Of a stretch of DNA of 64,000 nucleotides, positions 4,632-64,000 are shown in pieces (position 1 is the first letter of the stretch; each line of letters opens with the position of its first letter). Both the position numbers and the translations under genes were made by a program. The notes beneath the pieces were generated by a model. The model made no database searches and was not told the DNA's origin. It worked only from the letters and a program-made list of their open reading frames with translations. Origin of the DNA: a virus (Duplodnaviria; Caudoviricetes); the IMG/VR virus record IMGVR_UViG_3300005611_001698, positions 96,001 to 160,000 of that record; one strand, given 5' to 3'.

Positions 4632-5671
4632 CAGATTACCTCACAAGCCTCCTGATAGATGTTTTTTATAATATCTTTGACCGCATTCTTATCTATATCA
4701 GTTTCAGATTCATCAAGATATCTACTCAGGATTGAAAGAGTATCTTCCGATTGTTGAATATCAAAATCTTCATTTTCAGCAATAGCAAAGTTTTCAACAA
4801 TCTTCAAATCAGCAACACCAGAATCAAGAAGTTTATCTACAAACTTTTCAAACTTCTTTGGATCTGTTTTCTTACGGACAATAAGTTTTACAATTTTATC
4901 TTTATACTCTGCTGTATTAAATGTTTGATATGGAGTATCCTCATAATAGAGACGATAAAACATCCTGAAAGGATTATTGACAGGAGTTGTTTCAAGTGTC
5001 TCTGTATCAAAAATGTGAAACCCTCTGGTTTCTTCTAGATCACTCCAATAAATCTCATATGGATTTCCAAGATAATTGATATTATCCTCTGTACTTCTGT
5101 GATGATAATGTCCAGAGAAAACTTTTTTAAATCTTGCATAAGGAGCTCGATCAGCACCATGATCCATTAAGTGCTGGCGATTAGCATAGAATCCTTGCAG
5201 TTCCAAGTGTCCCATGACAACAGGACATTCGGTTTTTTTAAGTGAATCGTAAGTTGAACTTTCATTCTCCTGATTGATCCAGGGAACCATTGCAATGTTC
5301 AGTCCACCAATTTCACACTCTTCATACTCAGGTATAACATATACATTATCATATTCTCGCAACAAAAGATCAACTGCATTGATACTATTGGTGTTTTTAT
5401 AATAGGCAGTGTGGTTACCAACGATTGTGTAAACCTTAATGCCCATCTTTTGAAGTCTGTCATAATAGTTCTTCTTTGCCCATGAAAGTGCTGAGAAGTT
5501 AATACCAGTGCGATTATCAAAGGTATCACCCATATCTATGACTACGGTGATTTTCTCTTTCTCTAAGGTAGGGAAGAATACCTCATTATAGAACTCCAAA
5601 AAGAAGTCGTGAAACAGTTTAGAATTTTTACGAGCACCGAAGTGCTGATCTGTTATGATTGCGACTTTCAC
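4631..5671 (-). CDS. g47: Recombination endonuclease subunit, SbcD/Mre11-like (gp47)
   Basis: Metallophosphoesterase motifs DQHFG, GDTFD, GNH and GHYH. Confidence 0.97.
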   Translation of the reverse strand: MKVAIITDQHFGARKNSKLFHDFFLEFYNEVFFPTLEKEKITVVIDMGDTFDNRTGINFSALSWAKKNYYDRLQKMGIKVYTIVGNHTAYYKNTNSINAVDLLLREYDNVYVIPEYEECEIGGLNIAMVPWINQENESSTYDSLKKTECPVVMGHLELQGFYANRQHLMDHGADRAPYARFKKVFSGHYHHRSTEDNINYLGNPYEIYWSDLEETRGFHIFDTETLETTPVNNPFRMFYRLYYEDTPYQTFNTAEYKDKIVKLIVRKKTDPKKFEKFVDKLLDSGVADLKIVENFAIAENEDFDIQQSEDTLSILSRYLDESETDIDKNAVKDIIKNIYQEACEVI

Positions 5672-6228
5672 GAACGAAGTTTTGTGTGGACGTTATCTTT
5701 GATTTGATTATAGTCCGAATAGTTGCTGCTGTCAAGGGTATTGTTATCCACGAATACTTCATCGTATCCAGAGCGTTCAAGAATCTTGTTCTTGATTTCC
5801 ATTTGCTTTTTCTCTCTTTGAATCCGTCTCAGAAAAGCGTAGTGAATAATCTGAGTGAAATATGCAAAGGGATTCTGTGATTTTTCTGGATTGAAGTTAT
5901 TAATATATTGAATACAGTTCTCAATACCATCACAAACCATGTCATCTTTGAACATGTAGTTGACAAAGTTTGGTTTATATGAAAGGTGTGTTGCAATCTT
6001 CAAAAAACATTCACCAAGATAGTTTGTGATTCTTGGTTTGTTCGGACTCTTCCAGGTTTTTAAGATTTCAAACTGCTCATCAGGACTCATACTAGCAAGA
6101 TTAGGAATCTCTTTCTCAGCAGCTCTACGAACCTTGATTTTATACTCAATGATAGCAGCAAGAAAATCTTTATTGTTGACGTAATGTTCTGATCTCTTAC
6201 GTGTTTTTGGCATATTAGTTATTAACAT
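5668..6228 (-). CDS. g55: Late-transcription sigma factor (gp55)
   Basis: HYVNNK, KPRITNYLGECFLKIA, YKPNFVNY and NPFAYFTQI motifs; position upstream of g47. Confidence 0.96.
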   Translation of the reverse strand: MLITNMPKTRKRSEHYVNNKDFLAAIIEYKIKVRRAAEKEIPNLASMSPDEQFEILKTWKSPNKPRITNYLGECFLKIATHLSYKPNFVNYMFKDDMVCDGIENCIQYINNFNPEKSQNPFAYFTQIIHYAFLRRIQREKKQMEIKNKILERSGYDEVFVDNNTLDSSNYSDYNQIKDNVHTKLRS

Positions 6229-57474: not shown

Positions 57475-57560
57475 TAACAACAGTTTTCCACAAGTATTAG
57501 AGGGACATTAACAACAGTTTTCCACAAGTATTAGAGGGACATTAACAACAGTTTTCCACA
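57475..57560 (+). repeat. 34-bp tandem repeat (2.5 copies), each with a TTTTCCACA box
   Basis: Unit TAACAACAGTTTTCCACAAGTATTAGAGGGACAT at 57475 and 57509, partial copy at 57543. Confidence 0.95.
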
Positions 57561-57690
57561 GGATTAAACACTGCAAAGTAACTGCTTAGATACCACAAAT
57601 ACACTGCAAAGTAACTCTTTCTGTGGAATTGTGGAAAACTCTTTAACAAACTCAAATACATTTTTTAATACGTTTTTAATACATTTTTAA
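57484..57690. other. Candidate replication origin or DnaA-binding locus
   Basis: TTTTCCACA at 57484, 57518 and 57552, inverted copy at 57630-57638; ACACTGCAAAGTAACT at 57568 and 57601; AATAC(A/G)TTTTT three times at 57655-57690. Confidence 0.55.
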
Positions 57691-59552: not shown

Positions 59553-59563
59553 GTCGGTTGTGT

Positions 59564-59635
59564 TCCTTTGACTCTTATAGAATACACGATTCTGGGGGTC
59601 GTGCCCATTTTGTGTGACACTTATCCAACTGGCAC
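59564..59635 (-). promoter_or_regulatory. Early promoter cassette 1
   Basis: Palindrome GTGACACTT-N4-AACTGGCAC (59614-59635), 29-nt gap, -10 TATTCT, leader GAGTCAAAGGA. Confidence 0.8.
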
Positions 59636-59643
59636 ACCTCAGA

Positions 59644-60033
59644 TTAAAGATAAAGGAAAGAACCGTAAGCATCACAAATATGAGGATTATCTGCCAACTG
59701 AGTGATCAGATAGCGGACACCTTTTGCAGGTGCTTTGTAACTAGCAGGTTTGTAACATTCACCAGTATTCTTATCAACGAACATCCAGCAAGAACGTCCA
59801 CGAATCTTATCACCAGCATCAGAAAGATAAGACCAAACTTTGATATACTTTCGACCTTCCTCAATTTCCAGTTGAGTATAAACAGAATGACCAGATTCAA
59901 TAGAATTAACTTTCCACTCATTGTTCAGCACTTCGATAAGTGCTTCAGTCAGAAATTGTGGTTTGGTTTGTGTGATCGTCATGTCAAGGTTGTCAGTCAT
60001 TTTAGTGTGAAGATAAGATTTGATAAGTGACAT
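59644..60033 (-). CDS. Early hypothetical protein (paralog A)
   Basis: GRKYIKV...FVDKNTGECYKPASYKAPAKGVRY; 3' end duplicated at 63894-64000. Confidence 0.8.
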   Translation of the reverse strand: MSLIKSYLHTKMTDNLDMTITQTKPQFLTEALIEVLNNEWKVNSIESGHSVYTQLEIEEGRKYIKVWSYLSDAGDKIRGRSCWMFVDKNTGECYKPASYKAPAKGVRYLITQLADNPHICDAYGSFLYL

Positions 60034-60265: not shown

Positions 60266-60275
60266 GAGGTGAAAT

Positions 60276-60347
60276 CCCTTTGACTCTTTAATAATACATG
60301 GGATCGGACCCTATGGGGAAAATAGTGGGCACCTTGCCAACTGTCAC
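60276..60347 (-). promoter_or_regulatory. Early promoter cassette 2
   Basis: TGGGCACCT-N4-AACTGTCAC (60326-60347), 29-nt gap, -10 TATTAT, leader GAGTCAAAGGG. Confidence 0.8.
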
Positions 60348-61676: not shown

Positions 61677-61695
61677 CAGTCGAGTCGGTTGCTGT

Positions 61696-61767
61696 TCCTT
61701 TGACTCTCTTAATATACACGGAATCGGGGTCCGTGGGGAGAATAGTGGACACTTCTAAAACTGGACC
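61696..61767 (-). promoter_or_regulatory. Early promoter cassette 3
   Basis: TGGACACTT-N4-AACTGGACC (61746-61767), 29-nt gap, -10 TATATT, leader GAGTCAAAGGA. Confidence 0.8.
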
Positions 61768-61970
61768 AATTTTGTTGTGCTGATGCAGAGCAAAAATGCT
61801 AACATGATAACAACATCCCATGACTTAGTTCGGATGAAGAATGGGATTGAAATCATGTCAGCAATTAAGTGCATCATCACTCCAAATGTTACATTTACAT
61901 GCAACACAACAAAATAGGCAGAAACAACTAGAAATGATCCGATGATTCTGCCTAAAATGTCAATCTTCAT
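61755..61970 (-). CDS. Small multi-pass membrane protein
   Basis: 71 aa with three hydrophobic segments. Confidence 0.75.
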   Translation of the reverse strand: MKIDILGRIIGSFLVVSAYFVVLHVNVTFGVMMHLIADMISIPFFIRTKSWDVVIMLAFLLCISTTKLVQF

Positions 61971-62395
61971 ACGGCAAGAGCTCCATCAGGAATCGGCACT
62001 TCCATGACATTATTAACAGTGTATGGATTAGGGCGAAGATCATGACACACCCATTCACCATTTACAAAGTGATAGGCATATTCACCACCACAATTATTAT
62101 CCGAATAAATCAGAAACTCATTGAGGTCTTTATGAAGAACAGGCGGGCAATCTTCACCTCGTTGAGAATAGTATTGGGGACCATAAACACCCTTCACGCC
62201 AGTATCATCCCAGCGTTCATCTGTCCAGCAACAGGACATATCACCACCATCAATCAGTTCCTCAACAAGTGATTTAGAGTTGTAATGTGTGGTGAGAATA
62301 CGACCCAACCACTCAGGATAACCATCCCAATGATGATAAACAGACAGAATAGATCCGTCTTGAAGTTGAAGACCAATGCGTGAACGAGTTGCCAT
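61967..62395 (-). CDS. Conserved phage early hypothetical protein
   Basis: MATRSRIG...YHHWDGYP...GGDMS...EYAY pattern, widespread in phages. Confidence 0.85.
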   Translation of the reverse strand: MATRSRIGLQLQDGSILSVYHHWDGYPEWLGRILTTHYNSKSLVEELIDGGDMSCCWTDERWDDTGVKGVYGPQYYSQRGEDCPPVLHKDLNEFLIYSDNNCGGEYAYHFVNGEWVCHDLRPNPYTVNNVMEVPIPDGALAV

Positions 62396-62397
62396 AA

Positions 62398-62538
62398 TCA
62401 GAAAAGGGAGAGTTGTTGAAAGTTAATATGGTCACAGCAAGAGTCATCGTCTTGCAAATCTATCATGTCGGTATCAACATGCTTCAAGAGTTTGTCAAAG
62501 AGATCATTAACAAACTCTCGGTCTTCGTTAGTAATCAT
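62398..62538 (-). CDS. Acidic microprotein (46 aa) with C-terminal QLSLF beta-clamp-binding motif
   Basis: Manual translation MITNEDREFVNDLFDKLLKHVDTDMIDLQDDDSCCDHINFQQLSLF; ATGA-coupled to the upstream ORF and ends 2 nt before the next ATG. Confidence 0.7.
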   Translation of the reverse strand: MITNEDREFVNDLFDKLLKHVDTDMIDLQDDDSCCDHINFQQLSLF

Positions 62539-62702
62539 CCGCCGAACATTTCATCAAAGAGAGGAGTTTCCTGAAGACGTTGCTGGTCATAAGCATCACG
62601 AACAGCAAAGATTTCTTGCTCAACCATACGAACCTCAGCACGTTTCATTTCAAGTTTGTGACGCAATTCGTAGAGTTTCTGATTACGTTCGGTGATGGTC
62701 AT
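62535..62702 (-). CDS. Coiled-coil microprotein (55 aa)
   Basis: Manual translation MTITERNQKLYELRHKLEMKRAEVRMVEQEIFAVRDAYDQQRLQETPLFDEMFGG; first gene behind cassette 4. Confidence 0.7.
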   Translation of the reverse strand: MTITERNQKLYELRHKLEMKRAEVRMVEQEIFAVRDAYDQQRLQETPLFDEMFGG

Positions 62703-62713
62703 TTGAGGTCGAT

Positions 62714-62786
62714 TCCTTTGACTCTCTTAATATACACGGGATTGGACCCCGTGGGGAGAATGGTGGACACTTTGACCAACTGGCAC
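62714..62786 (-). promoter_or_regulatory. Early promoter cassette 4
   Basis: TGGACACTT-N5-AACTGGCAC (62764-62786), 29-nt gap, -10 TATATT, leader GAGTCAAAGGA. Confidence 0.8.
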
Positions 62787-63703: not shown

Positions 63704-63894
63704 TTTTTGTTCAGAAAGTGTGCTTCAATAATGTCTAAAATCTCACCACATTCATCTGCGGCATCTTCATCAATCAGAAGAGCATAATCCTCAACAGCAT
63801 CAGCAATCAGTTCTAATTGTCGGTCAGTAAATGTCATCTTACGGATTGAAAGATTGTTGAGTTGGTTGATAGTGTCAGTGAAAAGATCAGTCAT
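63700..63894 (-). CDS. Acidic early hypothetical protein
   Basis: 64-aa ORF with TGATG coupling. Confidence 0.7.
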   Translation of the reverse strand: MTDLFTDTINQLNNLSIRKMTFTDRQLELIADAVEDYALLIDEDAADECGEILDIIEAHFLNKK

Positions 63895-64000
63895 CAGAGA
63901 TACAGGAAAGAACCGTAAGCATCACAAATGTGAGGATTATCTGCCAACTGAGTGATCAGATAGCGGACACCTTTTGCAGGTGCTTTGTATGATGCAGGTT
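63894..64000 (-). CDS. 3' end of paralog B of the 59644-60033 gene (partial)
   Basis: Encodes ...PASYKAPAKGVRYLITQLADNPHICDAYGSFLYL*, identical in protein sequence to paralog A; 99/107 nt identical. Confidence 0.85.
   Translation of the reverse strand, partial: PASYKAPAKGVRYLITQLADNPHICDAYGSFLYL

Follow-up and report, generated by a model that had tools for sequence, protein, structure and literature searches.

A 46-residue microprotein family of T4-like cyanomyoviruses with a conserved C-terminal QLxLF tail, a probable ligand of the host sliding clamp

Phage proteins that bind the sliding clamp of the host are already known, and the staphylococcal phage product G1 ORF240 is a clamp inhibitor. 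In phage Mu, the proteins MuC and Mor carry near-consensus clamp-binding motifs at their termini and bind host DnaN, and over-expression of MuC is toxic by way of its motif (PMC12867686), while Gp168 of phage Twort shuts off the host beta-clamp, stopping host replication (PMC8565349). The motif itself is Q-phi-x-[L/M]-[F/L] or Q-phi-x-[L/M]-x-[F/L], and the pentamer and hexamer forms are equivalent; the Gln and the last two hydrophobic positions matter, position 3 is free, and Phe, Leu or Ile is accepted as the last residue (PMC11139829). The highest-affinity forms are QLxLF and QLxLxF, usually flanked by acidic residues or a free carboxylate, and a clamp-binding peptide from phage display reads LQLELDF (PMC11139829). 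An over-expressed peptide ending in QLDLF halts the growth of E. coli. In T4-like phages, gp45 is a core gene, and gp43 of both T4 and RB69 binds it through an epitope at the C-terminus (PMC2988020); a review describes a clamp-binding tail as retained in the gp55 homologues of T4-related phages.

The DNA analyzed here (the window, 64,000 nucleotides) belongs to the 194,408-bp genome of a T4-like cyanomyovirus. A sequence-only reading of the window had pointed to an ORF of 46 codons at 62398-62538, ending in QQLSLF and a stop, without assigning it a strand; this ORF is present and lies on the minus strand. It begins with ATG and ends in ...NFQQLSLF followed by TGA at 62398-62400, with the QLSLF codons at 62401-62415. 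The microprotein gene is the second in a tightly packed, minus-strand unit of four genes (55, 46, 142, and 71 aa), which is bracketed by two copies of a 60-nt cassette (61695-61754 and 62713-62772). The latter copy stands directly upstream of the 55-aa ORF, as expected from the earlier placement of the microprotein as the second gene behind the fourth cassette. The 55-aa ORF (62535-62702, minus strand, phrog_19748) opens the unit; its product is likely helical and has the tail PLFDEMFGG, and its TGA stop overlaps the microprotein ATG (ATGA). The third gene, a 142-aa ORF of phrog_1987 (61967-62395, minus strand), follows the microprotein after 2 nt and stands behind it in the two closest relatives only, and the final gene before the cassette at 61695-61754 encodes a hydrophobic 71-aa protein (61755-61970, minus strand, phrog_2318). 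Pfam holds no family for the microprotein or for its three neighbors in this unit.

The 60-nt cassette occurs in four copies (59563-59622, 60275-60334, 61695-61754, and 62713-62772), comprising a hairpin, a TATATT element, and the leader GAGTCAAAGG. Two of the copies share an identical 23-nt core, compared with zero expected by chance. The cassettes are putative promoters, possibly early ones. The hairpin is found in all four copies, with arms CACGGA..TCCGTG, CACGGG..CCCGTG, and CACGA..TCGTG, and is followed on the coding strand by the TATATT-like and leader segments. Because it is kept through compensatory changes between copies, the cassette may also be a structured operator or RNA element. 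Two further repeats are present in this part of the window: a 34-nt unit in three tandem copies at 57475-57576 (two identical, the third 68% alike), and a direct repeat of 108 nt, 93% identical, at 59643-59750 and 63893-64000, the copies lying 4.25 kb apart and the second reaching the window end.

The microprotein is a member of phrog_4032, matching the profile with E 6.9e-26 (residues 1-45 on positions 1-45 of 49), and represents a real and widespread gene family. A word-indexed search yielded 78 homologue clusters, a scan of IMG/VR yielded 262 loci, and an exhaustive profile search yielded 73 representatives, nearly all of 40-90 aa. Among GenBank phages, 82 records contain the gene, and all 82 are Synechococcus myoviruses, including "Prochlorococcus phage Syn1," whose isolation host is Synechococcus WH8101. 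The gene is without annotation in S-RIM8 A.HR5 and S-RSM4 (loci L445 and L446), and in Syn1 (locus L447) the annotation at this place is limited to Syn1_062, a fragment of 25 aa. A limited literature search found no paper on the phrog_4032 family or on a clamp-motif microprotein in cyanophages. The ESM Atlas gave no usable match, a PDB search with the family profile came back empty up to E 10, and a search of 151 Cyanobiaceae genomes for a host homologue or mimicked segment gave chance-level matches only (best E 0.002, in one genome).

Evidence for selection on the protein comes from 34 distinct 46-aa genes, in which the same conserved residue is often specified by different synonymous codons (L13 by six, L45 by six, and L43 by four); the ORF is therefore under purifying selection at the protein level. 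The ATG has no spaced Shine-Dalgarno sequence in front of it; a start/stop overlap with the preceding gene occurs in most relatives, whichever gene stands upstream, and such overlaps are typical of coupled translation. The genes on both sides of the microprotein differ among loci, which identifies it as an autonomous module of a hyperplastic region. A conserved operon partner, also considered, was rejected on this variation. Additionally, metatranscriptome contigs from four studies cover relatives of the ORF at 85–93% likeness, which is a weak hint of transcription given that RNA libraries may contain DNA and that the contigs carry neither strand nor level. Several of these contigs break exactly at the 3′ boundary of the ORF (62395-62398), matching the variable neighbors.

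The last five residues, QLSLF (residues 42-46; 62401-62415, minus strand), form by direct reading a canonical beta-clamp-binding motif at the extreme C-terminus. Across the 34 distinct 46-aa genes, position 42 is Gln (100%), position 43 is Leu (97%, by four codons), position 44 is any of seven residue types, position 45 is Leu (91%, by six codons), and position 46 is Phe (71%) or else mostly Ile or Leu. In a wider set of 148 distinct tails, 81 have the strict motif, 27 a loose form (e.g., QLELI, QLTIF, QLTLEV), and 40 have no motif, several of the latter being truncated, chimeric, or assembly artefacts. Hexamer forms also occur in the family (QLSLDF, QLALDF, QLTLDF). The range is illustrated by six cultured phages of six genera: S-RIM8 (QLSLF), S-RSM4 (QLSLL), Syn1 (QLTLDV), S-CAM7 (QLTLAI), S-H35 (QLELL), and S-T4 (QLELW). 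The terminal motif, whose conservation in homologues had been proposed as a check, is thus conserved, and it varies position by position just as beta-clamp-binding motifs are known to tolerate (PMC11139829). In one member (P0099), the motif has decayed at its usual place and a new EQLSLF is found eight residues further on, a relocation expected of a linear motif and not of an element of a fold; in another (P0092), the tail type of the upstream-ORF family (phrog_19748) takes the place of QLxLF. In both members, the tail acts as a portable linear motif attached to an unchanging core.

The tail is poorly explained by chance. In the 62,787 residues encoded by the 264-gene set of this 194-kb genome, there is a single instance of the strict pentamer, Q[LIVM]x[LM][FL], and about 0.004 genes per genome are expected to end exactly in it, where one is observed. 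A second candidate, a 112-aa DUF6561 protein encoded next to gp43, ends in ..SSSSNEQLDLGFAD and has the look of a QLDLGF hexamer; it was rejected as a chance likeness because the tail is not conserved in homologues, which have unrelated tails rich in Ser, Asp, and Thr, and it serves as a negative control. That gene aside, no other gene in the genome has a motif-like tail. Two adjacent DUF6561 paralogues, of 83 and 112 aa, lie beside gp43 on the minus strand, outside the window (genome C1:87316-87853). In its sequence, in its location within predicted disorder, and in its conservation, the microprotein tail has the features of a clamp ligand.

The AF2 model of the microprotein, made with the family alignment, has a mean pLDDT of 68.6 and contains the short helix and the acidic DLQDDDS segment that had been noticed earlier. 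The helix is amphipathic and N-terminal (residues 4-19; 62482-62529, minus strand; pLDDT ∼80), with an EFVxxLFxKL core in which F9, L13, F14, K16, and L17 are invariant in the 34 distinct genes. The rest of the protein, residues 20-46, is predicted coil (pLDDT 55–66). It includes a near-invariant acidic strip, VDTDMIDLQDDDS (residues 21-33; 62440-62478, minus strand), with the pattern D22-T-D-M-I-D-L-x-D-D-D32 (DTDMIDLxDDD), where D22, T23, M25, D27, L28, D31, and D32 are invariant. A linker, CCDHINFQ (residues 34-41; 62416-62439, minus strand), joins the strip to the tail; its F40 is conserved in 97% of the 34 genes, and its Cys and His residues are replaceable. A metal site at C34, C35, D36, and H37, as in a zinc-ribbon or other metal-binding microprotein, was considered and rejected because these ligands are not conserved: 7 of 34 genes encode Ser or Asp in place of C35, and in distant members SCCDH gives way to TAGIDA, SIQTAL, or THTTAL. 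CCDH is therefore not an obligatory metal site.

The helix and the acidic strip are conserved more strongly than the tail motif. Both are retained in the most distant members, the strip also in those without the motif. Together with the 40 of 148 tails that have no motif, this ranking indicates that the protein is more than a clamp-binding peptide, that the motif is not the sole functional element of the family and perhaps not the chief one, and that a second interaction exists besides that of the tail. A recurrent 193-aa protein (P0145, P0149-P0155; loci L456 and L457) fuses the helix and strip to a conserved 140-aa domain, which replaces the tail and leaves the fusion without the motif. This domain is also found without the microprotein core (P0156, P0157). 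Searched with the copy in P0145, Pfam and PHROG hold no family for it, and its AF2 model has a pLDDT of 33.

For comparison with the host, DnaN was taken from marine Cyanobiaceae genomes that were reached through a psbA locus; the chosen sequence is homologous to the beta-clamp over its full length (E. coli 1mmi, E 2e-33). The predicted complex of the microprotein with this DnaN scores 0.44 (runs 0.46, 0.44, and 0.40), compared with 0.18 for the best control, a score that may only mirror likeness because many clamp-peptide complexes have been solved. Agreement between runs is at least 52% of contacts, with a partner pLDDT of 39 or more. The mark set for such predictions is reached by 58 of 80 solved complexes and by 2 of 110 mismatched pairs; among the pairs reaching it, scores of 0.60 or below come from only 7 of the 80 solved complexes and from both passing mismatches. 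The structure-prediction check proposed for host-clade DnaN thus came out as weak support. In three Cyanobiaceae genomes, DnaE has GQGNLF or GQGNLL at the place homologous to the internal QADMF of E. coli; the loci are incomplete at the C-terminus, so the internal site alone is readable. If, by analogy, GQGNLF/GQGNLL is the clamp motif of the host polymerase, it would be below consensus at position 2, where Leu raises affinity (PMC11139829). The UmuC-like proteins of three Cyanobiaceae genomes contain no clear clamp motif.

Taken together, these observations make the microprotein a probable ligand of the host DnaN pocket, acting as an inhibitor or an adaptor. The earlier suggestion of a competitive inhibitor or adaptor is partly supported, by the conserved motif, the predicted disorder, and the presence of a separate phage clamp with a different gp43 tail. 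In the form we favor, to which we assign slightly less than an even chance, the tail would occupy the DnaN pocket in competition with replisome and repair proteins of the host and would leave the phage replisome unaffected. A largely disordered protein of 46 residues would be made from a region of small genes that is presumed to be early, and its free C-terminal QLSLF would insert into the hydrophobic protein-binding pocket of marine Synechococcus DnaN, where Pol III alpha, the clamp loader, and repair polymerases also dock. Because of its consensus strength and acidic flanks, QLSLF would out-compete the weaker internal GQGNLF/GQGNLL of the host polymerase, and host replication and repair would be disturbed. 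Insulation of the phage replisome from the microprotein would follow from its use of gp45 as clamp and from the different spacing of the gp43 tail (L[ED]xFF). A second contact, with another partner or with a different part of the clamp, may be made by the invariant helix and strip. The steps that we infer are the binding to DnaN, the competition, and the early timing. Each step has a precedent, in the peptide ending in QLDLF that halts E. coli growth, in MuC, and in Gp168, which shuts off the clamp by another route. Three features are not explained by pocket competition: the conservation of helix and strip above that of the tail, the roughly one quarter of divergent members without the motif, and the 193-aa fusion.

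Several alternatives bear on this proposal. That the ORF is not a gene, or is untranslated, is extremely improbable: it is very short, its ATG has no Shine-Dalgarno spacing, and annotation is missing in some relatives, but it is kept intact in 262 loci, its conserved residues vary widely in their synonymous codons (L13 and L45 by six each), its start/stop overlaps with varied upstream genes are typical of coupled translation, and the contigs of four metatranscriptome studies add a weak hint. A tail directed at the phage's own gp45, by which the microprotein would modulate the phage replisome or gp45-dependent late transcription, is also very unlikely, although the phage encodes gp45, gp44/62, gp43, gp33, and gp55, T4-type gp45 ligands are likewise short hydrophobic C-terminal tails (PMC2988020), and gp45- and DnaN-binding hydrophobic tails are chemically alike. 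The gp43 of this phage (genome C1:84824-87316, minus strand, outside the window) belongs to a group in which the tail is uniform, [NTS]L[ED]xFFx in 80 of 80 related loci (L202-L281; longer form EKTxxL[ED]xFFx). This L-x-x-F-F tail is PIP-box-like without the Gln and is presumably the gp45-binding epitope of the phage group, in agreement with the expectation that a T4-like phage has its own clamp with a different ligand motif. The end of gp33, ..MELNFLKRS.., also has no Gln. The microprotein tail fails the gp43-type pattern, since its Gln is invariant (100%) and its spacing is L-x-L-F where that of gp43 is L-x-x-F-F, and on these sequence grounds it appears to fit the bacterial motif and not the phage's own. 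Furthermore, all phage records in which the family was found are of Synechococcus myoviruses (82 of 82) even though gp45 is a core gene of T4-like phages. The end of gp55 (phrog_234; window 5668-6228, minus strand), ..DNVHTKLRS, shows no obvious hydrophobic clamp-binding tail. The coupled 55-aa ORF had been offered as a weaker hint of gp45 binding. Its tail is indeed conserved, as L[FY]x[ED]MFG[GE], in the 64 IMG/VR loci of its family, and we take it to resemble the RB69 gp43 tail ..SLFDMFDF; as a conserved partner of the microprotein it did not hold up, since the two adjoin in only 5 of the 64 loci. The 55-aa product may be another microprotein with a tail motif, perhaps one directed at gp45.

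Among the readings that keep clamp binding, the main rival is that the microprotein is a clamp-tethered adaptor, with the tail docking on DnaN and the helix and strip bringing a second protein, of phage or host, to DNA-loaded clamps. No part of the protein is better conserved than the helix and strip, which are kept even in members that have lost the motif, the recurrent fusion swaps the tail for a 140-aa domain while keeping the core, and the foreign tail type of P0092 suggests modular tails on a constant binding core; there is also precedent in MuC, by which the host clamp is used to activate late transcription (PMC12867686). Nevertheless, the neighbors on both sides vary, so that no partner is encoded alongside, the 151 Cyanobiaceae genomes contain no homologue or mimicked segment, and the fused domain is modeled with a pLDDT of only 33, and we consider an adaptor unlikely. 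It is likewise doubtful, at a similar level, that the tail forms part of a contact with a target other than the clamp, becoming folded with the strip once bound, and that its likeness to QLxLF is convergent; a DNA-mimic-like inhibitor of a host DNA-binding protein would be one example. Such a target could account for the invariant, acidic, and disordered DTDMIDLxDDD strip and for F40, two residues ahead of the motif, whose 97% conservation the clamp motif gives no reason for, and it would accommodate both the sizeable minority of the family without the motif and a DnaN complex score (0.44) that lies in the weak band. Against this, the combination at a free C-terminus of an invariant Gln, a free position 3, Leu, and a final Phe, Leu, or Ile, with alternation of pentamer and hexamer, is an unlikely coincidence, as is the motif itself where about 0.004 such genes per genome are expected.

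If clamp binding by the microprotein is true, what would be new is a micro-sized, mostly disordered protein that targets the peptide pocket, in ecologically dominant phages with an orthogonal clamp of their own. It would be the smallest known natural protein aimed at the clamp peptide pocket and the first pocket-targeting factor from a phage with its own clamp. It would also offer a testable mechanism separating the replication of abundant marine cyanomyoviruses from that of Synechococcus, and a natural scaffold, consisting of a consensus motif and an acidic flank, for clamp-directed antibacterial peptides. A broader proposal, which we hold to be somewhat less likely than not, is an "orthogonal clamp code" in which gp45 and PIP-like L[ED]xFF tails would serve the phage, and the microprotein, with its QLxLF tail of consensus strength and its acidic module, would selectively jam or hijack the host clamp. 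Were this so, nature would offer in the microprotein a minimal clamp inhibitor directed at the pocket, and a selective disturbance of host DNA synthesis during infection of marine Synechococcus would be explained. The family with the L[FY]xEMFG tail would then join it in a toolkit of microproteins with tail motifs. More generally, unannotated genes of fewer than 50 codons in the hyperplastic regions of T4-like phages may be readable through short linear motifs.

Compared with described systems, the microprotein is like MuC in being a phage protein with a terminal clamp-binding motif, here known from sequence. MuC is a DNA-binding transcription factor of ∼140 aa from a phage dependent on the host replisome, whereas the microprotein has no DNA-binding domain and no sequence relation to MuC, and comes from a phage that encodes both a clamp and a polymerase. 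Gp168 folds and oligomerizes to block the channel through which DNA passes in the clamp, whereas the microprotein is proposed to act at the peptide pocket; the family profile has no PDB match at E up to 10, the Gp168 complex included, and the two share no PHROG or Pfam family. The gp43, gp33, and gp55 proteins of T4 and RB69 dock on gp45 through short hydrophobic C-terminal tails, and the microprotein tail does not fit the cyanophage gp43 pattern. In eukaryotes, p21(CIP1) is a small disordered protein whose C-terminal PIP-box competes with polymerases for the PCNA pocket, which is an analogy only, since the clamp, the motif (Qxx[LIM]xx[FY][FY]), and the domain of life all differ. The cellular clamp ligands Pol II (QLGLF), Pol IV (QLVLGL), and Hda (QLSLPL), with the consensus QL[S/D]LF, use the motif to tether an enzyme or regulator domain, whereas the microprotein is viral and would present only a helix and an acidic strip. 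It shares with them the definition of the motif, the free terminus, the disordered segment, the acidic flanks, and the alternation of pentamer and hexamer forms.
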